This document shows positions 9,258 through 36,056 of a stretch of DNA of 36,056 bases, in pieces. This DNA comes from a bacterium (lineage in GTDB: Bacteria > Patescibacteriota > Minisyncoccia > Moranbacterales > UBA2206): assembly GCA_021779205.1 (NCBI GenBank), contig JAJYBE010000002.1:1-36056 (forward strand). The letters are read 5' to 3'. Made by a program: the position numbers and the translations under genes. Each line of letters starts with the position of its first letter. Positions within the stretch are counted from its first letter, which is position 1. The notes below the pieces were generated by a model. That model saw only the letters and a program-made list of their open reading frames with translations. It had not been told where the DNA came from and made no database searches.

Positions 9258-9272
9258 AAATTAAATCAATAA

Positions 9273-10235: not shown

Positions 10236-10250
10236 ATTTTTTTGGTTTTA

Positions 10251-10703: not shown

Positions 10704-10714
10704 TTTTTTAAAAA

Positions 10715-13717: not shown

Positions 13718-13737
13718 GAAGTGATATTTTTTATTAT

Positions 13738-14166: not shown

Positions 14167-14186
14167 AATGATTAAAATAGATTAAA

Positions 14187-14732: not shown

Positions 14733-14750
14733 TAAAATAAAAAAAGAAAA

Positions 14751-15221: not shown

Positions 15222-15238
15222 AAATAAAATAAAAAAGT

Positions 15239-17212
15239 ATGAAGAATGAGAGAATAATTTATCAAAAAGGTTCAATGCTTGTCGGCGTGTTGATCGTATT
15301 TTTAATGATTTCAATGGTGGCGATTGCCATCATTAATCGCTCGCTTCAAGGGACGGTTCTTACGGTAGATTCTAAAAAAGGTTATGCGACATATCAAAAT
15401 TCAGATTCAAGCGCGGAGAGTTTTTTGGATAAGTTTAAGAGTTTAGACAATGGAACATCCAATCAAATTCCGGAAAATACATCAGCCTTAAGTTTTTGCG
15501 GTGATACATTATGTTATAAAAAAGATGGGACAACTAAACTTGATTCTACTAAAAGCGTTAGCGATATTTTTAATTTTAAAACCAGCGCCACAGTGAATGA
15601 TGTTACCAGAACGATTTTTGCTCCTGTGCCTGATAGAATTGATGGAAAGTTGGGAGTGAGTGATTTGGAGGCGAAAAATTGCGATGGCATATATGCCCCT
15701 TGCAATGGATCATATAATAAATGTGATATAGGTATTAAGGTAGATGCTAGAGGTTTTGACTCAACGACAATGTTAAACTATGAAATCAGAAAATCAATCA
15801 ATTCGTCATTGGCATTTGGCGCGTCTAGTGGAGAGTATTATGGTTGGCAAAGAGTGCCTCAAGGAGATGCTACCTACGACCAATTTTTTGCAAAAGATGG
15901 AACGAAATTGCTTAAAAACGGTGATAGCTTGCTTAGTAATCAATATGGTCAGACATATTATTTCACTATCAAGGCCAGACACAAAAATCCTTTCAGTCTG
16001 GATTCGCTTTATTTGGATGATGGATCGGGAAAAGCTCCCCAAGAAGTTTTAATTGATAGCGCGCCAAAATGTAGCGGAACTGTAACTATCGGCACAACAA
16101 GCTATAATGCTCTTGATAAATTGGGATGTGTTACTTCGAATAATCAGCCGGCTGGAACAGAAACTTTCAAAAATTCCTATAATTGTTGTAACGGAACAGA
16201 GTGTTATATGCCTAGTCCGCATTGGACAAATAGTTCGGATAACACATGTGCTTTGGAGTTGTGTGACAATTCTGATCAAGAAGGTTTTCGTGATAATGTT
16301 GTTCCCGATGTTCCATCTGGTATTTTTGACGCACGAACTACTGGATTGGGTTGGTGTGGAACAGCAGTAATGTGCGTGCCAGGAAGAACATGCAAGGATC
16401 CTTATAGATATGTTGGGTATTGTAATTCTCCAAAAGATAAGAGCTCTCAATATGACGCTTTTCTCCCAGTCACAGACTGGAAATTTAATAATTTTGTAAA
16501 TGTAAATATGAATATTGTAGGAAATGCGCCAAACAGAACCGCAGGAGCTTTGGTAGAGCCTCGCTGTTCATATCACACTTGTCCAGCAGCTCCTTTGCAG
16601 AGTTGTGGAACTCCCACTGGTGGTTATGGATCTTTTAGCGCAAGTTTATCTTGTAACAATACGACAAATTGTGGACCATATACAGCTACGGTTTCATGCA
16701 ACCTATCTTGTGATTCCGGATATTATCCGGCAGTAGATAAGGCAAGCTCAACGACAGATCAAGTAACGATTAGTTATCCCAATAAATCATGTTGCTATAA
16801 GGATGCACCATCACCAGCTCCAACATGCGCAAGTGCCGGTTATAGTTGCGGATGGTTTCAAAGTTGGGTACCTATTTGTGGTAGTGGGTCGTGGAGTACT
16901 AGTTCATGCTGGAACCCTCATGGGTGCGGACCTGCTCCTACATGCTCTTGCGGCACGACAGGAAGTTGCACGGATACTTGCTCTGGAGTAGTTAGTGATA
17001 CGAGGAGTTGCACTGATCCGACCAATTTTGGCACTGCTTGTTATTCGGGAGCGAATAATTGTGGAGACACGAATACTGGAACAATTCAGTGCGATGGTAG
17101 TTGTAGCGCGTCAGTTCCTGCAGATATTGCTCCCACTACTTGTTGCGATGGAAGCACGGTGAGCTGTGGTGCTAGCTGTACTGTTACTTGTCCACCACCG
17201 GCTTTGCCTTAA
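15239..17212 (+). CDS. PilX/GspK-like pilus protein with a large Cys-rich C-terminal extension (putative tip adhesin)
   Basis: The N-terminal hydrophobic helix (GSMLVGVLIVFLMISMVAIAII) has no Glu+5, as in GspK/PilX. The PilX-like core ends near TRTIFAPV (about aa 130). The remaining ~525 aa are rich in Cys, Gly, Ser and Thr. Confidence 0.7.
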   Translation: MKNERIIYQKGSMLVGVLIVFLMISMVAIAIINRSLQGTVLTVDSKKGYATYQNSDSSAESFLDKFKSLDNGTSNQIPENTSALSFCGDTLCYKKDGTTKLDSTKSVSDIFNFKTSATVNDVTRTIFAPVPDRIDGKLGVSDLEAKNCDGIYAPCNGSYNKCDIGIKVDARGFDSTTMLNYEIRKSINSSLAFGASSGEYYGWQRVPQGDATYDQFFAKDGTKLLKNGDSLLSNQYGQTYYFTIKARHKNPFSLDSLYLDDGSGKAPQEVLIDSAPKCSGTVTIGTTSYNALDKLGCVTSNNQPAGTETFKNSYNCCNGTECYMPSPHWTNSSDNTCALELCDNSDQEGFRDNVVPDVPSGIFDARTTGLGWCGTAVMCVPGRTCKDPYRYVGYCNSPKDKSSQYDAFLPVTDWKFNNFVNVNMNIVGNAPNRTAGALVEPRCSYHTCPAAPLQSCGTPTGGYGSFSASLSCNNTTNCGPYTATVSCNLSCDSGYYPAVDKASSTTDQVTISYPNKSCCYKDAPSPAPTCASAGYSCGWFQSWVPICGSGSWSTSSCWNPHGCGPAPTCSCGTTGSCTDTCSGVVSDTRSCTDPTNFGTACYSGANNCGDTNTGTIQCDGSCSASVPADIAPTTCCDGSTVSCGASCTVTCPPPALP

Positions 17213-17249
17213 TTTTATTATATGAGGGTAGGGTTTTTAAGATTAAAGA

Positions 17250-17747
17250 ATGATCAAAAAAAAAGAAAAAAAAGAAAAAGGCTTTACACTCATAGAGATA
17301 TTGATTGTTGTGGCATTAATTGGTATTTTGAGTGTTGTTTCGATTACTTCAATGAAATCAGGGCAAGATCAAAATAAGCTTAAAGCAGCGCAGGCAGAAA
17401 CGGAATCGATTATAAAATTAGCGCAAAGTTATGCGCTTCAGGGTAAAAAGCAGGGAAATATTGTGCCAAAATATTATGGCGTTAAATTTTCAGTAGATGG
17501 AAAAAACTATTCTTTTTGCAGTAATTTGAATGATACCGATGTCGATTGCAACAATCTAATAGAAAACTATCAATTTAAAAATGGGGTGATGCTTAGTGCG
17601 GGACAGGGAACGCAAATATCTTTTGATATTCCTTATGGCAATTGTCGGTTAAGTTCAGCCAGCGATAACTTGACATTGACATTTAAATTTGACAATAATT
17701 CGCGAGGAATAATAGTCAACAAAGGCGGCGCAATTACGGAAAATTAA
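17250..17747 (+). CDS. Type IV pilin-like protein, module 2, GspH/FimU-like
   Basis: MIKKKEKKEKG|FTLIEILIVVALIGILSVV with Glu+5. Confidence 0.8.
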   Translation: MIKKKEKKEKGFTLIEILIVVALIGILSVVSITSMKSGQDQNKLKAAQAETESIIKLAQSYALQGKKQGNIVPKYYGVKFSVDGKNYSFCSNLNDTDVDCNNLIENYQFKNGVMLSAGQGTQISFDIPYGNCRLSSASDNLTLTFKFDNNSRGIIVNKGGAITEN

Positions 17748-18311
17748 ATGAAAACAAGATTTATAAAATTAAAAAAATATGCAGCTTTTTCTTTTGTTGA
17801 AGTGATGCTTTCCGTGACAATATTATCAATTGGCATAGTTGGTGTGATGCCTTTATTTATTTCCAATTTGAGGGTTTCTATGGATAGCCGCGATCAGATT
17901 ATTGCCGATATGTTGGCGCAGGAAGGAACGGAATTAGTGCAGAGTTTGCGAGATAATAATTTAGTGAATGGGGCAGTCGGGGGAATTTTTGATGGCGCAA
18001 CATTTCCCGGCTCAAGTTCAAGTAATTGCAGAATCAGTTATGATACGGATAAAATAATTTGCGATGGAACATATCAACTTAATTTAGATGCAAATAAATT
18101 TTATACTCACAAAGCAGATACGGGAGCGGTTGCTACAAAATTTAAACGAAAAATAAGTGTGGCATATAGTCCAAACTCAGATAATACGAGTGCCACGAAA
18201 GCGGAAATTATAAGTATGACAATTTGGGGAAATGTTTTTCCGGATATAGGCAGTTGCAACGCAGGCAATAAATGCGCTTATACCAAGTTAATTTTAACCA
18301 AATGGAATTAA
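17748..18311 (+). CDS. Minor pilin, module 2, PilV/GspI-like
   Basis: KKYAA|FSFVEVMLSVTILSIGIVGV with Glu+5. Paralogous to 14187-14732. Confidence 0.75.
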   Translation: MKTRFIKLKKYAAFSFVEVMLSVTILSIGIVGVMPLFISNLRVSMDSRDQIIADMLAQEGTELVQSLRDNNLVNGAVGGIFDGATFPGSSSSNCRISYDTDKIICDGTYQLNLDANKFYTHKADTGAVATKFKRKISVAYSPNSDNTSATKAEIISMTIWGNVFPDIGSCNAGNKCAYTKLILTKWN

Positions 18312-18313
18312 AG

Positions 18314-18862
18314 ATGCGAGAAAAAAATAAAAAGAAATATGCCGGTTTTTCTCTTTTGGAGATGGTTATCGCTATGAGTATTTTTGTTATAGTGGTAATG
18401 GTTGCGACGATTTCTTTTTCAAATGCTTTTTTTTCTGGACAAAAAACAGAAACAGTGCGAAAAAATTTGGAAAATGGCAGGGCGGCAATAGAAACAATGG
18501 CAAAAAATATTCGGATGAGCAGAAAACTTGTTGGAATAACGAATGGGATAAAGATGTTTAATAATTCTCAAGGAAAATGCATTGCGTATGTTTTTGGCAG
18601 TGGAAAATTGCAGAGTGTCGTTTATGCCCCTAGCGATATTGAAACAGACTCTACTTTTCCAACTTGCTCCGATCCTAATATGAGCAATGCTTCTGATTTG
18701 ATTTCATCCGGAGTCAGTGGTTCCTTTTCGATAGTCCAAACTTCAATAGTCACTCCTAAAAAAATAGGCAAGGCGACTATTTTGATAAAAATCGGAGCTG
18801 GCAGTAATATTCAGTATATGCAAACAACCGTTTCCTTTCGTGATTTTAGAGGTGTTTTATAA
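18314..18862 (+). CDS. Minor pilin, module 2, PilW/GspJ-like
   Basis: KKYAG|FSLLEMVIAMSIFVIVVMV with Glu+5. I use the ATG at 18314, just after the upstream stop at 18309-18311; the track start at 18272 overlaps the previous gene. Confidence 0.75.
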   Translation: MREKNKKKYAGFSLLEMVIAMSIFVIVVMVATISFSNAFFSGQKTETVRKNLENGRAAIETMAKNIRMSRKLVGITNGIKMFNNSQGKCIAYVFGSGKLQSVVYAPSDIETDSTFPTCSDPNMSNASDLISSGVSGSFSIVQTSIVTPKKIGKATILIKIGAGSNIQYMQTTVSFRDFRGVL

Positions 18863-18880
18863 AGGTGGTTCAATAAAATT

Positions 18881-19303
18881 ATGTCAAAAAAGATAAAATA
18901 TAAAGCATCGGCGCTTGTCATCACGATGATAATTTTAGGAATTATGCTGGTTGCAGCTCTTTCCACTTCCATTGTCTCGATTCGAGAAAAAAAAGCATCA
19001 ATGGGCGAAAATATTTCCGGACAAGCCTTTCAAGATGCTCAAAGCGGAGTGGAATTGGTAATGCGAAATATTCTAACCGGAGGACTCACAACAGTTAATC
19101 AACTTTCTAATTGTGAAAAAAATATTTCATCTTCAAATTACGGGTTTATTATTGATGCTAGTGTTCCATATAATGTTGAGCTTGAAGATATTAGCGGCAA
19201 CAAAATAAATTGTGATTCTACGGCTCTGATTTCCAGTATTGCTTCGCTTAAATCAGCGGGAACTTCCGGCGATAGCCAAAGGGCGATTCAAGCAATAAGG
19301 TGA
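18881..19303 (+). CDS. PilX/GspK-like small pilus protein, module 2
   Basis: Hydrophobic N-terminus ASALVITMIILGIMLVAALSTSIV without Glu+5. AFQDAQSGVELVM parallels TYQNSDSSAESFL in 15239-17212. Ends in QRAIQAIR, compared with TRTIFAPV. Confidence 0.65.
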   Translation: MSKKIKYKASALVITMIILGIMLVAALSTSIVSIREKKASMGENISGQAFQDAQSGVELVMRNILTGGLTTVNQLSNCEKNISSSNYGFIIDASVPYNVELEDISGNKINCDSTALISSIASLKSAGTSGDSQRAIQAIR

Positions 19304-20353: not shown

Positions 20354-21178
20354 ATGAGAAAAATTCAAGAAATAGTATCGGTTGTTGTGGTAGCTGCCAT
20401 TTTTTCAAGTTGTGCGGCTACGAATATGAGGTTTAATGGGAATTTCAGCCAAGCTAATTTAAATATCCCAAAGGAGTATATGAAAAATTATGCTAACAAG
20501 GATATTTCAAAGATTGTGCTCGGTGATTTACTCATTGAGCCTTTTGACTCGGTGGGAGTTAAGGAGACCCCCGCACTTTTGCGGGGTGAGTTTAGCGTAT
20601 ATAAAGTACCATTTCCATTTCCTGAGGAGCTTAAAAATGAACGGTACATACCAGAAAGAATTAAGTGGTATGCAATTGTTCTGTCTCAAGGATTTGAATA
20701 TTTGGGGCAGTTGGTGGCATTTGGCGATGGCGAAACGGAGCTTTTAGTTGATATTGCTAAGGCATTGAAAAATGCTAAGGCATTGCTTTTATCGACAATG
20801 GCTGAAAAAGTTTATAGCATTAAGTTGGATGCGAAAGGTGTTAATGTCGATCGCGGAAGGCTAATGGCAGATGTGGCTTATCGGAAAGATTTGATTGAGA
20901 AATATGGCACCAATCTTTCGGAATTTAGGCCTTCGAATAAGCTAATCAATGAGATTAGCAAGTGGAATCGATTTGATTCTCCACGGGGATATATCTTAAC
21001 TCCGCTTGATGAAAAACGATTTGACGAAATAGTTTCAATTAACCCAGGGTACACCTATTCTCAGAGATTGGTTGGGCAGCCTTGGGTAATTTCGACCAAT
21101 CCAATCGGTATGATTTTACAAGATGTTATTGCAAATAATGTTGGTGCCGCTATGGGATCGCCCAACATGAAATGGTGA
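20354..21178 (+). CDS. Hypothetical lipoprotein (island gene 1)
   Basis: Signal peptide with lipobox AAIFSS|C. Strong RBS AAGGAGG 7 nt upstream. No family recognised. Confidence 0.7.
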   Translation: MRKIQEIVSVVVVAAIFSSCAATNMRFNGNFSQANLNIPKEYMKNYANKDISKIVLGDLLIEPFDSVGVKETPALLRGEFSVYKVPFPFPEELKNERYIPERIKWYAIVLSQGFEYLGQLVAFGDGETELLVDIAKALKNAKALLLSTMAEKVYSIKLDAKGVNVDRGRLMADVAYRKDLIEKYGTNLSEFRPSNKLINEISKWNRFDSPRGYILTPLDEKRFDEIVSINPGYTYSQRLVGQPWVISTNPIGMILQDVIANNVGAAMGSPNMKW

Positions 21179-23153: not shown

Positions 23154-23570
23154 ATGAAAAATATCATGATGAGTTTATTGATGGCAATTGCCATCACGGT
23201 AATCGCCGGTGTCGCTCACGCGACGCCAATTATGATTAACACGGATATAACCATCAGTGCCGATGATAACGCGGTTGTGACGGTTTCAGGGACAACGCGT
23301 CTTGTTAGAGCGGTTCAATATTGCTCGGATGAAGTAAATAATGAGATAGGGTGTCCCAAAAATGTTGTAACCCCATTGAAAAACAACAGCTTTCAATTGG
23401 ATATTGAAGGACTGCAGGCTAAACAGAATGTTTTCAACCTGCAGTATGAGAAATATAATGACTGGCTCTGGATTCCCAGCGCCAGAGTAAAAATCGGGAA
23501 AAACCTCAAGCTCATCAGGCTTGGGGGTGGTGCCGGAATTCAGTACACAGGGCCCATCCCCACCAAATGA
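23154..23570 (+). CDS. Small secreted protein (island gene 3)
   Basis: Signal peptide MKNIMMSLLMAIAITVIAGVAHA|T. RBS GGAAGGAG upstream. Two Cys residues (C-x9-C). Followed by a strong terminator. Confidence 0.7.
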   Translation: MKNIMMSLLMAIAITVIAGVAHATPIMINTDITISADDNAVVTVSGTTRLVRAVQYCSDEVNNEIGCPKNVVTPLKNNSFQLDIEGLQAKQNVFNLQYEKYNDWLWIPSARVKIGKNLKLIRLGGGAGIQYTGPIPTK

Positions 23571-26369: not shown

Positions 26370-27422
26370 ATGCAGAGTAAAAAAAATATTATTTTAAGTA
26401 TAATCTTGAGTTGCTTATATTCTCCCGGGAAATTGGCAAATCTGCTTAAGGTTTTTTGTTTTCCCAAAAAAAATAAAGTAAACTTTTCCCCCATTTTCGC
26501 CGATATTGAATCTACAATCTCTTGTAATTTAAATTGTGTGATGTGTCATAGGAAAGAATTGGTCGCGGGAAGAAGCAGCCTTAATTTAACATTGGTTCAA
26601 TTTCGAAAAATTATAGATAAATTGCCTTATGTTCTCAAGCTTAATCTGCAAGGAATGGGCGAGCCACTTCTTTCAAGGGATCTTTTTGAAATGATTAAGT
26701 ATGCCAAAAAGAAACGCATTTATGTTTCAACCGTAACTAACGGGATGCTGATGACTGAAGATCGAGCGCGAAAAACAATAGAATCCGGCTTGGATCGAAT
26801 ATATTTTTCTATTGATTCGGCAGATTCAAAAAATTATGCGAAATATCGAGTGAATGGAAAGCTTGATCAAGTGATTGATAATTTAAAAAAACTCGTTGAA
26901 TTAAAGAATAAAAATAAAAGCAAATTGCATATTGGAGTTTGGATGTTGCTTTTTAATAATAATATTGACCAGCTTATCCCGGTATTGAAATTGGTTAAGG
27001 AGGCAGGAGCCGATGAATTGATTGTTCAGTCGCATATTTCCTATCGAGGAAAAAATAATTGGAAAGAAAAAATAAATAATTTAAAAATTAAAGATAAAAA
27101 TAATGATGTTTTTATAAAATTGGAAGAGGCTAAAAAATTTGCCAAAGAAATAAAATTAAAATTTTCAATTCAAGCCGGTATGGGTGTTTTGAAACCTGAT
27201 GCGAAAAGTCTTTGTCAATGGCCATGGAAATCGATCTATATTGCTTCAAACGGAGATGTTTCGTCTTGTTGCATTGTTGCCGATCCCAAGGTTGCATATA
27301 TGGGAAATATCCTTAACCAAGAATTTTCTCAAATATGGAATGGAACAATGTATCAAAATTTAAGAAAATCTTTGCTTGATAAGGAGATTCCCGACTATTG
27401 CAAGGAATGTTATGGAAAATAA
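26370..27422 (+). CDS. Radical SAM / SPASM-domain protein
   Basis: CNLNCVMCH (CxxxCxxC) radical SAM cluster motif. C-terminal Cys-rich SPASM-like region CQWPWKS...GDVSSCCIV...PDYCKECYG. Confidence 0.85.
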   Translation: MQSKKNIILSIILSCLYSPGKLANLLKVFCFPKKNKVNFSPIFADIESTISCNLNCVMCHRKELVAGRSSLNLTLVQFRKIIDKLPYVLKLNLQGMGEPLLSRDLFEMIKYAKKKRIYVSTVTNGMLMTEDRARKTIESGLDRIYFSIDSADSKNYAKYRVNGKLDQVIDNLKKLVELKNKNKSKLHIGVWMLLFNNNIDQLIPVLKLVKEAGADELIVQSHISYRGKNNWKEKINNLKIKDKNNDVFIKLEEAKKFAKEIKLKFSIQAGMGVLKPDAKSLCQWPWKSIYIASNGDVSSCCIVADPKVAYMGNILNQEFSQIWNGTMYQNLRKSLLDKEIPDYCKECYGK

Positions 27423-28749: not shown

Positions 28750-29199
28750 ATGAATTGTCCTTTTTGCAACAATGCGGAAACGAAAGTCGTTGATTCGCGA
28801 GAAACCAACGAGGGAAAAATTACTCGGCGACGTCGCGAGTGTTTGAAATGTTCTTCTCGGTTTAGCACTTATGAAGAAATCGAACTTTTGCGCCTAAATG
28901 TCATTAAAAAAAATGGAACAAGAGCGGAGTATAATAAATTAAAGATTGAAACAGGAATAAGAAAGGCATTGGAAAAACGACCGATAAATGAAGAAAGAAT
29001 ATCTCAATTTATTGGAGAGATAGAGTATGAGATTCGCACAAAAGAAAAACCAGAGATAACTTCAAGAGAAATTGGAAAGATTATTCTTAAAAAGTTGCGG
29101 CTGTTGGATGAGGTGGCTTATGTGAGATTTGCCAGTGTCTACAAATCTTTCGGTAGCATTGAAAGTTTCAAAAAAGAATTAGATACATTTGATAAATAA
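28750..29199 (+). CDS. nrdR: Transcriptional repressor NrdR
   Basis: MNCPFCN...TKVVDSRE...RRRRECLKCSSRFSTYE zinc ribbon followed by an ATP-cone. Confidence 0.95.
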   Translation: MNCPFCNNAETKVVDSRETNEGKITRRRRECLKCSSRFSTYEEIELLRLNVIKKNGTRAEYNKLKIETGIRKALEKRPINEERISQFIGEIEYEIRTKEKPEITSREIGKIILKKLRLLDEVAYVRFASVYKSFGSIESFKKELDTFDK

Positions 29200-29217
29200 A
29201 TTTTTTAAAAAAACCGT

Positions 29218-31401
29218 ATGAAAATTAAAAAGAAAAACAACAAAAAGAAGCAATCCGAAACATCAAGAGTAAGCGAAGCCAAAATTAAAAAAGTGATCAA
29301 GCGCGATGGAAAAATGGCTAAGTTTGATCAGCGTAAAATAACCAGTGGCATTCTTAAGGCGTTAGTTTCGACAAAAGAAGGCAAAGCGGAAGATGCCAAA
29401 AAAATAACTGAGAAAGTGGTAAGGTTGCTTTCCCAAAAACACAAAGAGGGATATGTTCCGGAGATTGAAGAAATTCAAGATTTAGTGGAAAGAGTTTTGA
29501 TGATTTTGGATTTTGAAGAAACGGCCAAGGCATATATACTTTATCGCGAACAACACAGAAAAAATCGTGAAGCGGAACAATCATTGGATGAAGCGGTTAA
29601 TTTAGTGGATAAATATATTCAAGGAATGGATTGGAAGGTTAAAGAAAATGCCAATATGGCATACTCTCTCCAAGGACTTAATAACTACATATCTTCCATT
29701 GTGAGTGCTAAATATTGGATGAATAGAGTTTATACAAAAGAAATTCGCCAAGCGCATGAAGGCGGTGATTTTCATATTCATGATTTGCAACTTCTGGCGG
29801 CTTATTGTTGCGGTTGGGATTTGCAAGATTTGTTGCGTCGCGGTTTTACGGGAGTGTCGGGAAAGGTGGCGTGTAAGCCAGCTAAACATCTGGGAGCAAT
29901 TCTCGGGCAAATGGTTAATTTTACCTATACGACTCAAGGTGAAGTGGCGGGAGCGCAAGCTTTTTCTAACTTTGACACATTATTGGCGCCATTTATTCGC
30001 TATGATAAATTGAATTATGATCAAGTTAAACAAGAAATTCAATCATATGTTTTCAATATGAATGTTTCTACGCGCGTGGGATTTCAAACGCCATTTTCCA
30101 ATATCACTATGGACATTACTTGTCCGAAAAATTTAGCAAAAGAAGTGGCAATCATTGGTGGAGTTCCGCAAAAAGAAACCTATGGAGAATTTCAAGAAGA
30201 AATGAATATGATTAATCGTGCTTTTGCGGAAGTGATGACAGAGGGCGATGCTAATGGCAGGATTTTTACTTTTCCCATTCCAACCTATAACATCGGCAAG
30301 GATTTTGATTGGAAAGACAAGCGGTTTGATGCGATTTGGGAGATGACGGCAAAATACGGTATTCCATATTTTGCTAATTTTATCAATTCAGATATGGATC
30401 CGGACGATGCTCGTTCAATGTGTTGTCGTTTGCGTTTGGATAATCGCGAACTGCATAAGCGCGGCGGCGGTTTATTCGGGGCTAATCCCTTAACCGGTTC
30501 GATAGGTGTTGTAACAATTAATTTGCCTCGCCTGGGTTATGTGGCGAAAAATAAAAAAGAATTTATTGAAAAACTTAATCGCTTAATGGATTTGGCAAAG
30601 GAAAGTTTGGAAACAAAAAGAATAATGGTGGAAAAATTAACCGAAGGAGGACTATATCCCTATACTAAATTTTATTTAGCGCCGATCAAGTTGCGTCGCG
30701 GACAATATTGGGCGAATCATTTTTCCACAATCGGTTTGATTGGAATGAATGAGGCGTTGCTAAATTTAATTGGAAAAGACATTACTACTTCGGCAGGACA
30801 AAAATTAGCTGAAGAAATTTTGATACATATGCGGGAAAGAATTATCGGATATCAAAAAGAAACTGATAATCTATATAATCTGGAAGCTACACCGGCAGAA
30901 GGCACGGCATATCGCTTGGCGAGAATGGATCAAAAAGATTATCCCGGAATTATTTTTGCCAACAATAAAAATGTGAAAGAAGATGGTGCTGAGCCGTATT
31001 ATACTAATTCCTCGCAACTGCCGGTTAATTTTACCGAAGATATTTTTGAGGCGTTGGATTTGCAGGATAATTTGCAAACAAAATATACCGGAGGAACAGT
31101 ATTGCATGGTTTTTTGGGTGAACGAATCTGGGATATTGAGATGACTAAAAAATTGGTTCGCAAAATTGCCGAAAATTATGCATTGCCTTATTTCACACTT
31201 ACTCCGACTTTCAGTATTTGTCCGGTGCATGGTTATCTTGAGGGAGAGCATCAATTCTGTCCAAAATGCGTGGTAGAGCAAAGAACGGAAATATATTCGC
31301 GCGTAGTGGGTTATATCCGTCCAATAGCTCAATGGAATGATGGAAAGCAAGCGGAATTTTCTGATCGCAAAGAATTTAGAGTGAAAAATAATAGTCGTTA
31401 A
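29218..31401 (+). CDS. nrdD: Anaerobic ribonucleoside-triphosphate reductase (class III)
   Basis: N-terminal ATP-cone (VIKRDGKMAKFDQRKI...). C-terminal metal site CPVH...CPKC. Glycyl-radical motif YSRVVGYIRPIAQWNDGKQAEFSDRKEF. Confidence 0.93.
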   Translation: MKIKKKNNKKKQSETSRVSEAKIKKVIKRDGKMAKFDQRKITSGILKALVSTKEGKAEDAKKITEKVVRLLSQKHKEGYVPEIEEIQDLVERVLMILDFEETAKAYILYREQHRKNREAEQSLDEAVNLVDKYIQGMDWKVKENANMAYSLQGLNNYISSIVSAKYWMNRVYTKEIRQAHEGGDFHIHDLQLLAAYCCGWDLQDLLRRGFTGVSGKVACKPAKHLGAILGQMVNFTYTTQGEVAGAQAFSNFDTLLAPFIRYDKLNYDQVKQEIQSYVFNMNVSTRVGFQTPFSNITMDITCPKNLAKEVAIIGGVPQKETYGEFQEEMNMINRAFAEVMTEGDANGRIFTFPIPTYNIGKDFDWKDKRFDAIWEMTAKYGIPYFANFINSDMDPDDARSMCCRLRLDNRELHKRGGGLFGANPLTGSIGVVTINLPRLGYVAKNKKEFIEKLNRLMDLAKESLETKRIMVEKLTEGGLYPYTKFYLAPIKLRRGQYWANHFSTIGLIGMNEALLNLIGKDITTSAGQKLAEEILIHMRERIIGYQKETDNLYNLEATPAEGTAYRLARMDQKDYPGIIFANNKNVKEDGAEPYYTNSSQLPVNFTEDIFEALDLQDNLQTKYTGGTVLHGFLGERIWDIEMTKKLVRKIAENYALPYFTLTPTFSICPVHGYLEGEHQFCPKCVVEQRTEIYSRVVGYIRPIAQWNDGKQAEFSDRKEFRVKNNSR

Positions 31402-31415
31402 ATTTAAAAGATAGT

Positions 31416-31446
31416 AAGCCATTCCGCTTTCCAAGCGGAATGGCTT
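31416..31446 (+). other. Perfect 12-bp stem-loop between nrdD and nrdG
   Basis: aagccattccgc / gcggaatggctt with a 7-nt loop. It is followed by aattt rather than a long T tract. Confidence 0.7.
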
Positions 31447-31458
31447 AATTTAAATAAT

Positions 31459-32163
31459 ATGCATATTTCTGGTCAACAAAAATTAACATTAATTGATTTT
31501 CCTGGACATTTGGCAACTACAATTTTTACCTCTGGTTGTAATTTTCGTTGCCCTTTCTGCCATAATCCGGAATTGGCTATGGGAAAGATTGAAAAAATAT
31601 CATCATCTGAATCTAAAAGTGAAACGGATTTTTTTAAATTTTTATCGGCACGCAAAGGAAAAATAGACGGTGTTTGCATTACCGGAGGAGAACCGACACT
31701 GCAACCTGGCTTAGTTGATTTTATTAAAAAAATAAAAGCGTGTGAATTTTTTGTAAAACTGGACACTAATGGGACAAGACCCGACGTGCTGAAATGCTTG
31801 TTAGATTTAAAATTATTGGATTTTGTAGCAATGGATATTAAGAATAGTCCGGAAAAATATAGTGAAACAGTTGGTGTGAATGTTGATGTTGAGAAAATAA
31901 AAGCCAGTGTTGAATTGATCAGGAATAGTTTTATTGATTATGAGTTTCGCACGACAGTCGTCCCGGGAATTCACGATTACGTTGATTTTTTAGCGATTGC
32001 AAATTGGCTGTCCGGATCCAAAGCGTATTATTTGCAAGAATACAGAGATGCGGTTATTTTGGATAGTAATTTAAGAAAAAAAACAAAAAATCAAAAAATT
32101 GATTTGGAAAAAATAAAACAAACTATCGAACATCATTTTCAAAAAATGGGAATCAGAAGCTAA
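31459..32163 (+). CDS. nrdG: Anaerobic ribonucleotide reductase activating protein (radical SAM)
   Basis: LTLIDFPGHLATTIFTSGCNFRCPFCHNPEL (CxxxCxxC) and GVCITGGEPTL. Lies immediately downstream of nrdD. Confidence 0.88.
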   Translation: MHISGQQKLTLIDFPGHLATTIFTSGCNFRCPFCHNPELAMGKIEKISSSESKSETDFFKFLSARKGKIDGVCITGGEPTLQPGLVDFIKKIKACEFFVKLDTNGTRPDVLKCLLDLKLLDFVAMDIKNSPEKYSETVGVNVDVEKIKASVELIRNSFIDYEFRTTVVPGIHDYVDFLAIANWLSGSKAYYLQEYRDAVILDSNLRKKTKNQKIDLEKIKQTIEHHFQKMGIRS

Positions 32164-32175
32164 TCTTTTTTTATT

Positions 32176-32397
32176 ATGCGAATTTATCTTAAAGTTATTC
32201 CTCGCGCTTCCGTTAATAGTTTGGAAAAAATTAATGAAGGTGAGTATAAAGCGAAATTGACTGCTCCTCCAGTGGACGGGAAGGCTAATTTGGCTTTGAT
32301 CAAACTTTTGGCGGAATATTTCGGAGTTTCTAAAAGCGCCATAACAATTATCGGTGGAAAAACTGCTAGAATAAAAATAGTTGATGTGGATTTGTAA
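32176..32397 (+). CDS. DUF167 / YggU-family protein
   Basis: KVIPRAS...AKLTAPPVDGKANLALIKLLAEYFGVSKSAITIIGGKTARIK matches the YggU pattern (PvdGkAN..l...La......K....i..G..sr.K). Confidence 0.75.
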   Translation: MRIYLKVIPRASVNSLEKINEGEYKAKLTAPPVDGKANLALIKLLAEYFGVSKSAITIIGGKTARIKIVDVDL

Positions 32398-32445: not shown

Positions 32446-32474
32446 TTGTCAAAAAATAAAAAGAAGATTATACT
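32446..32474 (+). promoter_or_regulatory. Putative promoter of the hydrogenase-like operon
   Basis: TTGTCA (32446-32451), 17-nt spacer, TATACT (32469-32474). This leaves a leader of about 115 nt before the ATG at 32593. Confidence 0.5.
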
Positions 32475-32592: not shown

Positions 32593-33144
32593 ATGTTCAA
32601 ATTATACTCAAAAATTTTTTCTACGCCAAGAACCGTAATTGATGCGGATGAATTAATTGTCGATAATGACATAGAAATAGTCGGAAAGCGTTTGACAAAA
32701 AAAATAAAAGATATTTTTCAAGGATCATTAGCTATTCGTGAAGTTGATGCGGGATCAACTAACGCTTGCGAGCAAGAATTAACAGCTTTGAGCAATGCTT
32801 ATTATGATGTTGAGAGATTTGGAATTCATTTTGTCGCATCTCCCAGGCATGCCGATATGCTTATGGTTACCGGAGCTGTTTCGCGTAATATGCGGCAAGC
32901 GCTAATAAAAACATATGAAGCAACACCTAATCCAAAAATTGTAGTAGCGGTAGGGGATGATGCGATTGATGGTGGAATATTCAAAGGCTCATACGCGGTT
33001 ATGGATGGTGTGGATAAGGTTATTCCTGTTGATTTTAAGATTCCTGGCGATCCACCTTCTCCAAAAACAATTATCAAGCATCTTCTGAAAATTCTTGATT
33101 TAGTTGAAAAGAAAAATAAAGAAAGAGTAAAAAGCATAGAGTAA
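32593..33144 (+). CDS. NuoB/HycG/EchC-like small subunit of a group-4 hydrogenase-like complex, depleted in cysteine ligands
   Basis: ERFGIHFVASPRHADMLMVTGAVSRNMRQALIKTYEATPNPKIVVAVG...GGIF...VIPVDFKIPGDPPSP is clear NuoB-family sequence. I prefer the ATG at 32593 to the upstream TTG at 32551 in the track. Confidence 0.8.
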   Translation: MFKLYSKIFSTPRTVIDADELIVDNDIEIVGKRLTKKIKDIFQGSLAIREVDAGSTNACEQELTALSNAYYDVERFGIHFVASPRHADMLMVTGAVSRNMRQALIKTYEATPNPKIVVAVGDDAIDGGIFKGSYAVMDGVDKVIPVDFKIPGDPPSPKTIIKHLLKILDLVEKKNKERVKSIE

Positions 33145-33166
33145 GTTTTTTTTGTTTCAATATTAT

Positions 33167-35197
33167 ATGTTTAATTTCAGTTTTGTTCAAATGAATTTTT
33201 TTATGGCATTAGCGCTATTGTTTATTGGCGCATTCGGCTCATTATTAATGAGAAGAAATGATGTGTTAGCAAATTGGTGGAGTGGTGTAATGGCAATTTT
33301 TGCGGCTTGTTTTGGTTTGGTAGTGGCTATTTCGGTGCTATTCTTTGGAATGACTGCTAATTTTAGCGCCAATTCTACATTGCCGCTTTTGACTTTTTCT
33401 TTGAGAATTGACCCTCTTTCCGCCTTTTTTATTTTTATTATTTCATTGATTACAATCTTGGCGTCAGTTTATGGAATTGATTATGTAAGGCATTATTACG
33501 GAAAGTATAGCATCGGAACATTGGGATTTTTTTATAATTTATTTATTGCCGGAATGCTTCTTGTTGTAAGTGCTAACAATGCTTTATTTTTTTTGATTGC
33601 TTGGGAAATTATGTCTTGTGCTTCTTATTTTTTGGTTATTTTTGAAAACAAGGAGGTTGACAATGTGCGCGCCGGATCGCTTTATTTTATTATGACGCAT
33701 ATTGGCACAGCTTTTATCATGCTGGCATTTTTATTGCTTTATTCAGTTAGTGGTTCTTTTGATTTTACGATAATAAAAGAAAATTTAGTAACGATTTCAC
33801 CCGTAATGAAAAATATTATTTTTTTATTGATGCTGATCGGATTTGGTACTAAAGCAGGAATCATTCCCTTGCATATCTGGCTTCCTCGTGCCCATCCGGC
33901 TGCTCCGAGTCATGTCAGTGCTTTAATGTCCGGAGTCATGATTAAGACTGGAATTTATATGTTTATTCGTATTTTTATTGATACTTTGCCTGGCGTTCCA
34001 TTGTGGTGGGGCGAGTTGGTCTTGTTGATTGGCGCTATCTCTGCATTGGCGGGCGTCCTGTATGCGCTTACTGAACATGATATTAAAAGGCTTTTGGCAT
34101 ACCATAGTATTGAAAATATCGGAATCATTCTTTTGGGAGTGGGAAGTTCTTTGATTTTTTTAGCGCTTAACCTTAAGGAATTAGCGATATTAGCTTTAGC
34201 GGCGGCACTTTTCCATACACTGAATCATGCAATTTTTAAATCCCTACTTTTTATGGGTGCCGGTTCGGTTATTTCAAAAATGCATACTCGCAACATGGAA
34301 GAATATGGCGGCATAATTAAATATATGCCACAAACCGCCCTTTTCTTTTTAATTGGGTCATTAGCCATTTCCGCCTTACCTCCATTTAATGGATTTTTTA
34401 GCGAGTGGATGACATATCAATCTTTATTTTCCGGTATTGCTAATTTAAACAGTTCAGCTCAATGGATATTTATTTTGGCGGCTGGTTCGTTGGCTTTTAC
34501 TGGCGGATTGGCGGCGGCTTGTTTTGTTAAAGCTTTTGGAGCGATATTTTTGGCTCGTCCGCGCAATAAAAAGGTTGAACAAATAAAAGAATCCGGTGTG
34601 ATGTCGCGCATTGGCATGGGCATGTTGGCGATTTTTACTTTGATTTTTGGAGTTTTTGCCTATCCGATTTCAAGAACTATTTTAAACATTGCCGGTAGCT
34701 TGAATGTTTTTGACGCAAAAAAAATTGAAAACAGTTCAATTATTCAAAGAAAATTGGAAATCATTTCAATGCCGGTAATTTTTATAAGTATTGCGTGCGT
34801 GCTAATTTTGGTAATCGTTTTAATTTCTGCGTTAACGAAAAAAAGAAAAGTGCAAACTGGTTGCACATGGGATTGTGGGACTGAGCTTACTCCAAGAATG
34901 GAAATTACAGCAACCGGTTTTTCTCGCTCAATAGTGGTTATTTTTCGAGGAATTTTGCGTCCGACAAAGCAAAATACGATTGAATATCGTGATGCCGATA
35001 TGCGTTATTTTGCCAAGAAAAATCTAGTTAAATTGGAAGTTGAAGATTTTTGGGGAACACGCGTGTATTATCCGGCGCAAGCCTTGGTAACAAAAATATC
35101 TAATCGAGTTAAATTATTACAAAGTGGAAATATCAATACCTATATTTTATATATTTTTTTGACATTGTTATTATTGTTATTATTTTTAGTAATTTGA
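33167..35197 (+). CDS. HyfB/HycC-like (NuoL/M/N antiporter-family) membrane subunit
   Basis: Polytopic. Proton-antiporter-family core (LFFLIAWEIMSCASYFLV, GTKAGIIPLHIWLPRAHPAAPSHVSALMSGVMIKTGIY, LAYHSIENIGIILLG, HTLNHAIFKSLLFMGAG) plus a HyfB-type C-terminal extension (CTWDCGTELTPRMEITATGFS). The start is ambiguous: 33152 (TTG), 33167, 33191 or 33203. Confidence 0.85.
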   Translation: MFNFSFVQMNFFMALALLFIGAFGSLLMRRNDVLANWWSGVMAIFAACFGLVVAISVLFFGMTANFSANSTLPLLTFSLRIDPLSAFFIFIISLITILASVYGIDYVRHYYGKYSIGTLGFFYNLFIAGMLLVVSANNALFFLIAWEIMSCASYFLVIFENKEVDNVRAGSLYFIMTHIGTAFIMLAFLLLYSVSGSFDFTIIKENLVTISPVMKNIIFLLMLIGFGTKAGIIPLHIWLPRAHPAAPSHVSALMSGVMIKTGIYMFIRIFIDTLPGVPLWWGELVLLIGAISALAGVLYALTEHDIKRLLAYHSIENIGIILLGVGSSLIFLALNLKELAILALAAALFHTLNHAIFKSLLFMGAGSVISKMHTRNMEEYGGIIKYMPQTALFFLIGSLAISALPPFNGFFSEWMTYQSLFSGIANLNSSAQWIFILAAGSLAFTGGLAAACFVKAFGAIFLARPRNKKVEQIKESGVMSRIGMGMLAIFTLIFGVFAYPISRTILNIAGSLNVFDAKKIENSSIIQRKLEIISMPVIFISIACVLILVIVLISALTKKRKVQTGCTWDCGTELTPRMEITATGFSRSIVVIFRGILRPTKQNTIEYRDADMRYFAKKNLVKLEVEDFWGTRVYYPAQALVTKISNRVKLLQSGNINTYILYIFLTLLLLLLFLVI

Positions 35198-35198
35198 T

Positions 35199-36056
35199 AT
35201 GAATATTTTGACAATTATTATTTGGACAATTCAATTGATTTTAATTCCGGTTGCTTCGCCACTGTTTATCGGATTGGTGCGAAAAATTAAAGCGCGCTTG
35301 CAAAACAGGGTTGGCGCAAGTATTTTTCAACCTTATTTTGATCTTTGGAAATTATTTCATAAAGATGAAATTATCAGCACTGATGCTTCTCGGATTTTTC
35401 GTTTTGCGCCATATCTAATTTTTTCTATCACATTGATTATTGGAGCCAGTATTCCGCTTTTCAGCACGGTATTTTCAAATAATAGCATGAGTGATTTTTT
35501 GGTTATTGTATATTTAGTGGCATTAAGCACATTTTTTTTGGCGCTTGCAGGAATGGATGTCGGTAGTGGATTCGGTGGGTTTGGCGCAAGTCGTGAAATG
35601 ACGGTTTCCGCATTAACTGAAGGTGGCTTGATTCTTTCTATTTTGGCAGTAACTTTTATTGCTCACTCAACTAATCTTTTCACTATTTCCGGATTTATTT
35701 CGCAAATGTCTTTATTTTCGTTTGCTCCGATTTTTTTGGCTTTCTCCGCTTTTGTGATTGCAATGCTTGCGGAAGCCGGTCGCTTTCCTTTTGATAATCC
35801 TGCCACGCACTTGGAATTAACAATGATTCATGAAGCGATGATTTTGGAATATTCCGGCAAGCGCCTCGCATTAATTGAGTGGTCTGCTGCCAATAAGTTT
35901 TTAATTTTTTTGGCATTGGGGGTCAATTTATTTTTTCCATGGGGAATTTCCAGAACATTTGATTTGCAAAGTAGCATATTCGCGCTGGTAATATTTTTTA
36001 TAAAAATCTACGTGATGAGTTTGGCTGTGTCTGTTTTAGAATCAACAATTACTAAA
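35199..36056 (+). CDS. HycD/HyfC-like (NuoH-family) membrane subunit, 3'-partial
   Basis: Absent from the ORF track because it has no stop in the window. I translated it by hand from the ATG at 35199: MNILTIIIWTIQLILIPVASPLFIGLVRKIKARLQNRVGASIFQPYFDLWKLF...AEAGRFPFDNPATHLELTMIHEAMILEYSGKRLALIEW. The frame stays open to the window end (286 codons). Confidence 0.8.
   Translation, partial: MNILTIIIWTIQLILIPVASPLFIGLVRKIKARLQNRVGASIFQPYFDLWKLFHKDEIISTDASRIFRFAPYLIFSITLIIGASIPLFSTVFSNNSMSDFLVIVYLVALSTFFLALAGMDVGSGFGGFGASREMTVSALTEGGLILSILAVTFIAHSTNLFTISGFISQMSLFSFAPIFLAFSAFVIAMLAEAGRFPFDNPATHLELTMIHEAMILEYSGKRLALIEWSAANKFLIFLALGVNLFFPWGISRTFDLQSSIFALVIFFIKIYVMSLAVSVLESTITK

Follow-up and report, generated by a model that had tools for sequence, protein, structure and literature searches.

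Complexes of the Ehr type, such as EhrA-S of Geobacter sulfurreducens, combine Hyf-like membrane subunits with NuoB-like and NuoC/D-like subunits, and their large subunit carries no NiFe CxxC motifs. Their function is unknown, with ion translocation being suspected (PMC6349859), and functional data do not exist for any Ehr complex. In the classical form, found in this analysis in Methanoperedens and others, the genes run B-C-E-F-G-(ferredoxin)-S, the small subunit has four cluster cysteines, and a ferredoxin-like gene is present in 13 of 16 operons. The operon discussed here differs from this layout: its small-subunit gene comes first, cluster ligands and ferredoxin-like gene are lost, EhrS has gained an N-terminal extension, and the operon is often linked to atp genes. 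It is nevertheless a variant of a known complex, and Ehr large subunits of CPR bacteria have already been published and placed in the Ehr clade (Jaffe et al. 2020, PMC7304191). For comparison we surveyed 80 GTDB loci from 80 species genomes, which are called S-first or S-last by the position of the small-subunit gene.

The analysed stretch of DNA, referred to as the window, comes from an ultra-small bacterium of the Patescibacteria/CPR type. It comprises 36,056 nucleotides and contains ehrS, ehrB and ehrC, the opening three of the six genes that make up the operon (Table 1). The families proposed for them in a preliminary description are borne out by Pfam and NCBIfam matches. EhrS belongs to PF01058 (Oxidored_q6, 1.4e-26) and to NCBIfam NuoB, where it reaches 124 bits against a cutoff of 116 for subfamily NF005012; its gene call is identical on two ENA contigs. 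The ehrB product scores above the cutoff of NCBIfam 'hydrogenase 4 subunit B', its reading frame opening at a TTG at 33152, and ehrC, truncated where the window stops, has its match in PF00146 (NADHdh). Upstream of the operon lies nrdD-nrdG-DUF167, and no atp genes occur in the 32 kb upstream of ehrS. A promoter can be proposed only with caution, with 10 sigma-70-like consensus sites in the region where 4.9 are expected, and a search for RNA or protein evidence for the locus returned DNA runs only. As the window also encodes the FeS enzymes NrdG and a SPASM radical-SAM protein, the loss of FeS is specific to the Ehr complex.

The other three genes lie past the window end and their state is inferred from near relatives (88-92% identical), in which the operon is complete as S-B-C-E-F-G. 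They are ehrE (HyfE-like), ehrF (HyfF-like) and ehrG, which encodes a fused NuoC/NuoD-like large subunit. In the two closest relatives of the window (L003 and L006) a gene of the PF20393 'putative carbonic anhydrase' family is located directly 3' of ehrG.

Table 1. Features of the ehr locus, with positions counted along the window
Feature	Position	Strand	Basis
Possible operon promoter, sigma-70-like TTGTCA-17-TATACT, within the 195 bp that separate ehrS from the DUF167 gene	32446..32474	+	consensus match only
ehrS, small subunit of the NuoB/HycG/MbhJ family, 183 aa, 1 Cys in total, without [4Fe-4S] ligand set	32593..33144	+	Pfam, NCBIfam, PDB alignment, dN/dS 0.10
Conserved N-terminal extension of EhrS, MFKLYSKIFSTPRTVIDADE	32593..32652	+	alignment A1; S-first vs S-last consensus
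Former N-terminal ligand motif, VDAGSTNACEQE; ligand Cys 1 replaced by T56, ligand Cys 2 retained as C59	32743..32778	+	PDB alignment, locus survey
GIHFVASPRHAD, equivalent of the 'NDUFS7 loop' (HycG 69-80), SPRHAD coupling loop	32821..32856	+	alignment A1; HycG alignment; PMC9474812
Former G-x-C-x3-GG motif, now VGDDAIDGGIF, with D123 in place of ligand Cys 3	32950..32982	+	PDB alignment, homologs
Former PGCPP motif, now IPGDPPSP, with D153 in place of ligand Cys 4	33040..33063	+	PDB alignment, homologs, survey
ehrB, antiporter-like subunit of the HyfB/HycC/NuoL/MrpA type, 676 aa from ATG	33167..35197	+	NCBIfam 701 bits; alignment to 7z0s_C and 6cfw_H
ehrC, subunit of the NuoH/HycD/HyfC type, first 286 aa, rest beyond the window end	35199..36056	+	Pfam NADHdh 1.5e-43

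What is left of the cluster site in EhrS? HMMER matches the protein to the solved structures of HycG (7z0s_G, E 4e-32) and MbhJ (6cfw_J, E 2e-28), and in this alignment T56, C59, D123 and D153 take the four [4Fe-4S] ligand positions, opposite the cysteines of CxxC, GAC and PGCPP in HycG and of C-N-G-C, GAC and PGCPP in MbhJ. Cysteine ligands at shifted positions are impossible because the whole protein contains a single Cys. The alignment, which the preliminary description had itself proposed as a check, upholds its claim of a small subunit without FeS ligands. The three peptides that it quoted exist as given, although their coordinates (32755-32778, 32952-32975 and 33039-33056) were slightly off in all three cases and are replaced by those in Table 1. 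Of the 120 database homologs closest to EhrS, all have the second D of GDD and 118 have PGDPP, and among the four ligand replacements D153 is conserved best. Since so many homologs share the pattern and EhrS is under purifying selection (dN/dS of 0.10 against L006 and L003), the ligand loss is due neither to chance nor to sequencing error.

The survey connects this loss with gene order. S-first operons are all Cys-poor, with ATCDD, the ligand pattern of the window, in 22 loci, ASEGD in 16, ADCDD in 10 and others in the rest, whereas S-last small subunits read xCCCC and have their four Cys in 16 of 16 operons. The median number of cysteines per small subunit is 1 in S-first and 5 in S-last members. 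An N-terminal extension, in which K7, I8 and T11 are invariant (alignment A1), is common to the S-first proteins and missing from the Cys-containing S-last ones. The ferredoxin-like genes of S-last operons encode about 112 residues, and a regular-expression search detects two CxxCxxCxxxCP motifs in 8 of these ORFs and one in 5; in L075, L078 and L081 no such gene was found. No ORF with this motif lies inside any S-first operon, the two nearby ones being located outside, on the opposite strand in L022 and upstream in L027, and the full operons of L003, L004 and L006 contain no Fer4-type gene. In every scorable locus the S-first order coincides with the loss of both the cysteines and the ferredoxin gene. 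The small-subunit-first order, which had been noticed as unusual from the window alone, hence tracks cofactor loss; in L084, whose small subunit has four Cys, gene order could not be scored.

In a search of 1.84 billion proteins the Cys-less forms make up a compact group beside Cys4 relatives. Their large subunits share one clade with those of Cys4 Ehr operons, from which a true NiFe large subunit stands apart. When a neighbour-joining tree of large subunits is rooted on this NiFe subunit, the S-first operons form a single clade in 97 of 100 bootstraps and the S-last operons are paraphyletic, with no curated Ehr reference set included. We thus show a single origin of the Cys-less lineage, nested in Ehr complexes that still carry FeS.

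In relatives, the large subunit has been stripped of its metal ligands as well. The RVCGICGFAHS and DPCYSCTD of HycE correspond to RVSGDTSFTHS and ...NLSYSGNDL in L003 and L006, all four NiFe cysteines being lost, and both CxxC motifs are missing from the 52 S-first large subunits examined (52/52; RVSGDTSFTH, LSYSGNDL). The motifs now found at this site, SGD(T/S/N)S..H and LSYSGND, are conserved in FeS-containing and FeS-free Ehr alike, and a ligand or catalytic site could persist there. Aligned to Nqo4 of T. thermophilus, the large subunit has Gly and Ile at the positions of the quinone-binding Tyr87 and His38. The best PDB and NCBIfam matches, which are to FHL/Hyf subunits (besides HycG, HycE with 5e-68 and HycC with 4e-84; HyfB, HyfE and HyfF in NCBIfam), would suit a genuine [NiFe] hydrogenase of group 4 whose small subunit is unusual. 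With the CxxC motifs gone in all S-first relatives examined, an EhrS that cannot hold the proximal cluster, and no hyp maturation genes within the 36-kb window, this explanation has virtually no chance of being correct. The preliminary description would have given way to it if Cys ligands had turned up at shifted positions, or if hyp genes had accompanied a large subunit whose NiFe site is intact; within the limits of the data, neither is the case, its question about the NiFe CxxC motifs being answered from the relatives. The Ehr-type identity it had suspected is supported by the motifs of L003 and L006 and by the published placement of CPR large subunits (PMC7304191).

Could the complex still be a redox enzyme, either with a cofactor on non-Cys ligands (Asp, Glu or Thr together with C59) or with electrons passing via an unlinked partner? 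Asp is known to ligate [4Fe-4S] clusters in some proteins, and D123 and D153 are conserved in the 120 closest homologs. Across the whole S-first family, however, no common ligand set exists: T, S and D occur at position 56, C, E, A, V and P at 59, D, G and E at 123, and D, N and E at 153, while 17 of 64 small subunits contain no Cys at all. Because of this variation and of the Cys-free proteins, an Asp-ligated cluster is unlikely, so that of the two options considered from the window alone, a cluster that is absent or bound by Asp, the first is favoured. Furthermore, a NuoI/HycF-type gene is found neither within the operons nor next to them, the NiFe cysteines and the NuoD quinone Tyr/His are both missing from the large subunit, and a lone cluster would be left without donor and acceptor. 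A remaining redox function is therefore highly improbable.

A decaying, functionless relic of a hydrogenase or Ehr operon would explain why every catalytic metal ligand is lost. All six operon genes, however, are under strong purifying selection (dN/dS 0.035-0.10), dozens of lineages have kept the reading frames intact, the gene order is conserved, and protein identity across CPR classes amounts to 55-92%, comparable to AtpA. EhrS itself is as conserved as AtpA, and the peripheral subunits are conserved at least as well as the membrane subunits. The selection data effectively refute decay and leave hardly any room for it.

The residues for ion translocation are conserved in both antiporter-like subunits. 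Based on alignment to 7z0s_C and 6cfw_H, with conservation scored across 55 loci, ehrB keeps the TM5 Glu (AWEIMS), the TM7 Lys (GTKAG), the TM8 His..His...Lys (FHTLNHAIFK) and the TM12 Glu (GFFSEW), along with a TWDCG motif resembling the ND3 loop. In ehrC the AETGRFPFDNPATHLELTMIHEAMILEYSG loop is kept, which corresponds to the ND1 loop and the E-channel carboxylates (58 loci). Conservation extends to all four of the loops through which, in complex I and FHL, the peripheral arm is coupled to the membrane arm. One of these is the NDUFS7 loop (PMC9474812), and in the equivalent region of EhrS F80-D88 and G77 are invariant while I78 and H79 vary (alignment A1).

A further hint comes from the neighborhood. 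In 13 of 61 S-first loci atp genes lie no more than 4.4 kb away, in four different arrangements, compared to 0 of 16 S-last loci, and in L036 the ehr operon is found between atpG and atpD with gaps of only 6 and 25 nt; the counts are not phylogenetically independent. Another subclade carries DedA and Na+/H+ exchanger genes upstream of the operon. The recurrent atp synteny, including the insertion within the atp operon, would be compatible with a complex that has no transport of its own and instead supports the F1Fo ATP synthase structurally or regulates it, for example by contributing to the proton path or to assembly, by organising the membrane, or as a pH/ion sensor tuning the direction of the ATPase, and an acidic pocket at the former cluster site could sense pH. 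Against this, 48 of the 61 S-first loci, including the window, do not adjoin atp genes, and the Lys/Glu/His transport residues of both antiporter-like subunits and the NuoH-like E-channel are fully conserved, which speaks for real ion translocation. We consider such a purely auxiliary role improbable.

The complex has lost all redox metal sites, yet it is strongly conserved, and its operon is often found next to that of the ATP synthase or within it. Its most likely role is therefore to move ions without redox chemistry. Our best reading, to which we give about an even chance and in which the function is inferred, is that the cofactor-free Ehr variant is a redox-independent ion translocator. 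It would no longer transfer electrons and would act as a secondary cation/proton translocator similar to Mrp, using or reshaping the proton gradient of the F1Fo ATPase in organisms without an electron-transport chain. The c-ring of this ATPase is apparently of the H+ type, judged from the Na+ signature alone and hence only tentatively. The retained NuoB/NuoCD-like cap might then serve as a cytoplasmic gate or ion vestibule. The carboxylates that took the place of the cluster cysteines (D153 with D123, or E59 in another subclade) may line a pocket that can be protonated or bind cations, and the conserved loops would link this pocket to the membrane arm.

A plain antiporter role fails to explain the conservation of the periphery, EhrS above all, since Mrp works without NuoH, NuoB and NuoD homologues. 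An alternative is non-redox chemistry, with a substrate bound or converted in the former NiFe/quinone cavity, for example by a hydration, dehydration or decarboxylation such as CO2/bicarbonate interconversion, which would be driven by the proton gradient or drive ion pumping, in analogy to CO2-hydrating modules of the DAB/Cup type. In its favour, conservation is high for R-V/I-S-G-D-x-S..H and L-S-Y-S-G-N-D as well as for all coupling loops despite the Cys loss, the peripheral subunits match or exceed the membrane subunits in conservation, and the PF20393 gene follows ehrG in L003 and L006. This neighbour is absent from all other of the 61 distinct S-first loci, however, and apart from it no conserved accessory gene accompanies S-first operons. 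In addition, no candidate substrate or metal-binding motif is identifiable, and FeS-containing Ehr share the same motifs, presumably for redox chemistry there. From this analysis we regard such a reaction as unlikely.

Extending the ion-translocator reading, one may tentatively, and with considerable doubt, propose a new class of energy coupling: a non-redox ion translocator derived from complex I, which would be the dedicated partner of F1Fo in Patescibacteria and have the carboxylate pocket as its gate. If true, gradients (H+ versus Na+/K+, possibly derived from host or environment) would be interconverted to energise or protect the membrane, a pocket evolved from a [4Fe-4S] site would be the ion/proton gate that drives the conserved coupling loops, and Patescibacteria without an electron-transport chain would possess a partner for their F1Fo ATP synthase.

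How does this compare to known systems? E. coli hydrogenase 4 (HyfA-J) and FHL-1 (HycB-G and FdhF; PDB 7Z0S) provide the best match for every subunit and share the fused NuoC/D-type large subunit and the four coupling loops. The window type differs in having no NiFe site, proximal cluster, HycF/HyfH, HycB/HyfA, FdhF or HyfD, in its gene order and in the absence of hyp genes nearby. Complex I (Nuo) and MBH and MBS of P. furiosus likewise unite NuoB, NuoD and NuoH with an antiporter-like module and coupling loops, but here an N2-equivalent cluster, NuoI and the quinone-binding Tyr/His are missing, and no NuoA or NuoJ gene was recognised. Antiporter-like subunits also work in DAB (DabA/DabB) and in cyanobacterial NDH-1 Cup, where non-redox CO2 hydration is coupled to an ion gradient; a putative carbonic anhydrase gene follows ehrG in L003 and L006 only, and the Ehr variant has no DabA or Cup homologue. 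The Mrp Na+/H+ antiporter (e.g. PDB 7QRU) offers a working analogy, with MrpA/MrpD-type subunits that have the same Lys/Glu/His and no redox cofactors. While Mrp comprises MrpB, C, E, F and G and has no NuoH-, NuoB- or NuoC/D-like subunits, the complex of the window, with S-B-C-E-F-G as its only content, keeps the complete shell of a peripheral 'Q-module'. The Ehr variant is thus not a member of the Mrp family, though it may work like one.

The positions 32593–36056 are occupied by three co-directional genes, the first of which, ehrS, encodes a small subunit of the NuoB/HycG type. EhrS aligns to the solved HycG (7z0s_G, E = 4e-32), to MbhJ (6cfw_J, 2e-28) and to the PSST/NuoB chains of complex I. 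In the alignment with HycG and MbhJ the cluster cysteines lie opposite T56, C59, D123 and D153, which bears out the preliminary description of a subunit without its FeS ligand set; the three peptides quoted there do exist, but at coordinates that were slightly off. Because the whole protein contains a single Cys, ligands at shifted positions, which would have refuted this claim, are excluded. The 120 closest database homologs of EhrS (71–91% identity) come, where the source gives a name, from Parcubacteria, Kerfeldbacteria, Magasanikbacteria, Paceibacterota or the 'Patescibacteria group'; all of them keep the second Asp of GDD, and 118 keep PGDPP. Since the window also encodes FeS enzymes, namely an NrdG-like activase and a SPASM radical-SAM protein, the FeS loss is specific to the EhrS protein.

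An exact look-up of EhrS returns the identical gene, with the same ATG called, on two independent ENA contigs, both of about 5 kb and ending within the window. The exact sequence is also present in four DNA runs from mine drainage metagenomes, while RNA runs are missing among the sequencing runs that contain it and there are no expression data for the locus. A single-chain AlphaFold2 model of EhrS from a 25-sequence alignment was poor (mean pLDDT 45). The ehr operon follows the order nrdR-nrdD-nrdG-DUF167, and neither atp nor hyp genes were found in the 32 kb upstream of it. As the third gene is cut, everything past the window end is read from relatives, and the subunits E, F and G of this organism remain unseen.

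Features of the window and of related loci (positions refer to the window unless a locus is named)
Feature	Position	Remarks
EhrS	32593-33144	183 aa; PF01058 (Oxidored_q6) 1.4e-26; NCBIfam NuoB subfamily above cutoff
EhrS peptide VDAGSTNACEQE	32743-32778	corrected coordinates
EhrS peptide VGDDAIDGGIF	32950-32982	corrected coordinates
EhrS peptide IPGDPPSP	33040-33063	corrected coordinates
HyfB-like ORF	33152/33167-35197	NCBIfam 'hydrogenase 4 subunit B', 701 bits, above cutoff
NuoH-like ORF	from 35199	open at window end; PF00146 (NuoH family) 1.5e-43
nrd region	28750-32397	nrdR, anaerobic ribonucleotide reductase nrdD (727 aa, Lys-rich N-terminus), nrdG, DUF167 gene; L006 arranged alike
NrdG-like RNR activase gene	31459-32163	radical-SAM and 4Fe-4S single-cluster (Fer4_12) domains; just upstream of ehr operon
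SPASM radical-SAM gene	26370-27422	
SecD homologue	2361-4082	PPIC-type peptidyl-prolyl isomerase (rotamase) domain at residues 147-237
Type IV pilus cluster	12926-19303	prepilin peptidase (A24), at least five N-methyl-motif pseudopilin/pilin genes, PilX-like gene
ORF mid pilus cluster	15239-17212	657 aa; no Pfam match
Genes not on the + strand	8412-12718	rhodanese-domain gene, fmt, def, priA
ORF without Pfam match	150-1841	563 aa
ORF without Pfam match	7368-8099	243 aa
ORF without Pfam match	20354-21178	274 aa
ORF without Pfam match	23154-23570	138 aa
PF20393 'putative carbonic anhydrase' gene	L003:17323-18246; L006:17361-18290	~308 aa, match in two stretches; directly after ehrG
ehr operon within atp operon	L036:1-20507	uncultured Saccharibacteria, CAYHUB010000003.1
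FeS-containing Ehr operon beside group 4 hydrogenase cluster	L076:1-17766	Methanomassiliicoccus MAG

Elsewhere in the window (1–36056), GC ranges from 32 to 42%, GC skew is positive in all 2-kb bins, and nearly all genes lie on the + strand. The PPIC-type domain of the SecD homologue is inserted between the N-terminal part of P1 and the P1 head, which looks like an unusual fusion.

The complete operon is seen in close relatives. Among the loci surveyed in other genomes, L003 (a 43-kb JGI contig) and L006 (GTDB MAG BP9.bin89, with nrdD-nrdG-DUF167 upstream as in the window) have small subunits 91–92% and membrane subunits 86–91% identical to those of the window. Together with the Parcubacteria contig L004 they share a six-gene operon in the order small subunit, HyfB-like, NuoH-like, 219-aa HyfE-like, 481-aa HyfF-like antiporter subunit and fused NuoC+NuoD-like large subunit of about 525 residues, and no gene for a HycF/NuoI-type 2x[4Fe-4S] protein was found in the operon of these three loci. 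Aligned to HycE (7z0s_E, 5e-68), the large subunit of L003 and L006 reads RVSGDTSFTHS versus RVCGICGFAHS and, at its C-terminus, NLSYSGNDL versus DPCYSCTD; all four NiFe cysteines are absent. An alignment to Nqo4 of T. thermophilus places Gly and Ile at the positions of the quinone Tyr and His. The relatives thus speak for a non-hydrogenase, with the proviso that the window's own large-subunit gene lies beyond the contig end.

The former NiFe-site motifs are nevertheless still conserved in the large subunit, and they favor a rival explanation that remains live: a non-redox ligand or a catalytic role for the peripheral cap. The putative carbonic anhydrase gene that follows ehrG in L003 and L006, and probably also lies just past the window end, might be a further hint, but it is a neighbor in two loci only. 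A general partnership with carbonic anhydrase was rejected, as PF20393 was not detected after ehrG at any other locus with the small-subunit gene in first place.

Scanning one genome for each GTDB species gave 591 relatives or more, and the survey went on with the best 80 loci; their ORFs were labelled by BLASTP against the L003 genes, and ligand columns were taken from the alignment with HycG and MbhJ. Two architectures emerge. In the S-first type (S-B-C-E-F-G) no ferredoxin-like ORF lies within the operon among these best 80 loci, and the sole two CxxCxxCxxxCP ORFs in the vicinity, both external to the operon, belong to L022, where the ORF is on the opposite strand, and to L027, where it is upstream. 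The S-last type reads B-C-E-F-G-(ferredoxin-like ORF of about 112 aa)-S and is hosted by Methanoperedens and other archaea, Omnitrophota and Bacillota. All four ligand cysteines are present in 16 of 16 S-last loci, whereas S-first patterns (the preceding column plus the four positions) are ATCDD (22), ASEGD (16), ADCDD (10) and rarer others; S-last small subunits contain 5 Cys at the median, S-first ones 1. By regular expression, 13 of the 16 S-last loci have a ferredoxin-like ORF, with two CxxCxxCxxxCP motifs in eight and one in five, and none was detected in L075, L078 and L081. S-last large subunits are likewise without NiFe cysteines (RISGDNSVAH, LSYSGNDM), and these operons are classical Ehr complexes. 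A small-subunit gene in first place is indeed unusual, as had been remarked earlier, and architecture agrees with ligand state in every locus with scorable order (five had none). A HMMER search run exhaustively over 1.84 billion cluster representatives gives the same picture at another scale: Cys-less clusters are few and rank first, and the matches right after them are Cys4 proteins, which account for 97 of the best 150.

S-first operons are found mostly in Patescibacteria lineages, but also in bins labelled Dadabacteria, Thermoleophilia, Actinomycetes, Fibrobacteria and others. Operons 55–72% identical to those of CPR occur in L010, in L011 (Dadabacteria), L013, L020/L022 (Thermoleophilia), L031/L061 (Actinomycetes) and L085 (Gammaproteobacteria), which suggests that they were exchanged laterally between CPR and other phyla or, for the short contigs, that binning went wrong. 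The labels 'Bdellovibrionales', 'Syntrophus' and 'Raoultibacter' are unverified, and some of these may be mis-binned CPR contigs. Since L010 sits on a 2.79-Mb contig and L011 is labelled Dadabacteria, the S-first type probably occurs outside CPR as well.

How did this type arise? We built a simple neighbor-joining tree of large subunits, without curated reference groups, rooted on the genuine NiFe large subunit of L076 (RVCGICSYHH, DPCICCTDR). The S-first group is recovered as monophyletic by 97 of 100 bootstraps and is nested within a paraphyletic S-last grade, and therefore the loss of the FeS ligands, the loss of the ferredoxin-like subunit and the relocation of the small-subunit gene look like a single ancient event within Ehr. 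The Ehr-type reading of the preliminary description is thereby upheld, as the large subunits form one group with classical Ehr and the relatives have no NiFe cysteines. In L076 an FeS-containing Ehr operon without NiFe cysteines adjoins a genuine group 4 hydrogenase cluster. The family records an ordered series that starts with hydrogenase, passes through FeS-containing Ehr and ends with cofactor-free Ehr; its last step coincides with gene rearrangement and subunit loss.

Ehr complexes were reportedly defined in Geobacter by Coppi in 2005 and by Marreiros et al. in 2013, and their function is still given as unknown in the literature. Jaffe et al. 2020 (PMC7304191) placed CPR large subunits in their own clade within Ehr, without NiFe cysteines, and concluded that they 'likely cannot interact with H2'. 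Our literature search, which did not include the two founding papers, found no description of small-subunit FeS loss, a missing ferredoxin-like subunit or atp linkage in CPR Ehr. Within that literature, these three observations are new, while Ehr complexes and CPR large subunits without NiFe ligands were already known.

The genomic company of S-first operons points to the F1Fo ATP synthase. Of 61 distinct S-first loci, 13 have its genes no more than 4.4 kb away from the ehr operon. Four arrangements occur: atp genes just upstream of the operon (e.g. L003, L004, L014, L058), downstream (L030, L046), convergent (L019), and around it. This last case is L036, with the order atpB-E-F-H-A-G, ehrS-B-C-E-F-G, atpD-C, where the whole six-gene operon sits between atpG and atpD with junction gaps of 6 and 25 nt. 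No atp genes were found near any of the 16 S-last loci (Fisher's exact p = 0.036), and the excess over a chance expectation of about 2.5% is marked (binomial 3e-9), both values being uncorrected for shared ancestry. The linked ATPases have c subunits that read AFAEAVAIYAL and lack the Gln/Ser-Thr Na+ signature; they are probably H+-coupled. Such linkage could also reflect a regulatory partnership with ATP synthase, a reading we consider less likely than a ligand or catalytic role of the cap. In the 'ASEGD' subclade ehrS is directly preceded by a gene for a DedA/VTT membrane protein (L038, L045, L047, L049, L051, L053, L054, L060, L062, L063), and five of these loci have a 703-aa Na+/H+ exchanger (PF00999) slightly further upstream.

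What became of the cluster site itself? The earlier suggestion was that the cluster is either absent or bound by Asp. D123 and D153 are conserved inside the window's subclade, but across the S-first clade residue 56 varies between T, S and D, residue 59 among C, E, A, V and P, and residue 123 among D, G and E; residue 153 is D, with N or E in rare cases. An Asp-ligated cluster was rejected, as neither C59 nor D123 is constant beyond the closest subclade and Cys is missing altogether from many members (17 of 64 S-first small subunits). Judged from sequence, a [4Fe-4S] cluster in S-first small subunits is very unlikely because no ligand set is conserved across the clade, and it is the absence of the cluster that we favor. 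An exotic cofactor at so variable a site ranks lower still than a partnership with ATP synthase. The substitutions follow a pattern: C59 with D123 alternates with E59 with G123, and N153 is paired with D56 in four of five cases, so that nearly every member retains at least two carboxylates in the old pocket. Acidity is, on this alignment evidence, the conserved property of the former cluster pocket across S-first EhrS. The covariation was scored without phylogenetic correction and possibly reflects only one or two evolutionary events. S-first EhrS also has a conserved N-terminal extension of about 20 residues, missing from S-last small subunits, which may, by inference, stand in for contacts of the lost ferredoxin-like subunit.

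Simple decay would be another way to lose cofactors, and it is the least likely of the rivals listed here. Between the window, L003 and L006 all six genes have dN/dS of 0.035–0.10, with the values for ehrE, ehrF and ehrG taken from relatives as these genes lie beyond the window end. Across CPR classes EhrS is 55–80% identical, a conservation similar to that of AtpA and far above that of the ATP synthase gamma, delta, epsilon, a and b subunits at the same loci. In the two antiporter-like subunits the TM5 Glu, TM7 Lys, TM8 His..His...Lys and TM12 Glu all remain in place, and the NuoH-like subunit retains AExGRxPFDxxxxxxELxxxHExxxxEYSG. The FHL structure identified four loops as coupling elements common to FHL and complex I (PMC9474812), and all four are conserved in S-first Ehr: the NDUFS7 loop (GIHFVASPRHAD, with F80–D88 invariant in our alignment of EhrS homologues), the beta1-beta2 loop of the large subunit (VPVGPVHAGIIEPGHFRFS), the ND1 loop and the ND3-like loop (TWDCG).

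Taken together, we hold with high confidence that the locus encodes a cofactor-free, derived form of Ehr. Because there is no electron entry, relay or acceptor, because the ion-translocation and coupling machinery is intact, and because the tie to a H+-ATPase recurs, the complex most likely moves cations and protons without redox chemistry, a mechanism that is inferred. By analogy, translocation would be Mrp-like, and the peripheral cap would remain as a gate or vestibule, with a carboxylate pocket in place of the cluster.

Two open questions meet here, membrane energisation in CPR and the coupling of peripheral arms to ion translocation. How Patescibacteria, with F-type ATPases but without an electron-transport chain, energise their membrane is still treated as open (e.g. 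PMC12361377), and a complex-I-like ion machine that is strongly conserved and recurrently linked with the atp operon gives this process one tangible candidate component. The main weakness of the Mrp-like reading is that Mrp needs no NuoB/NuoCD-like peripheral cap, whereas cofactor-free Ehr keeps one. A structure or transport assay could reveal what the coupling apparatus does without electron transfer: with all redox centers gone and the four coupling loops and antiporter residues under strong selection, these complexes represent a natural experiment on coupling in complex I, MBH and FHL.
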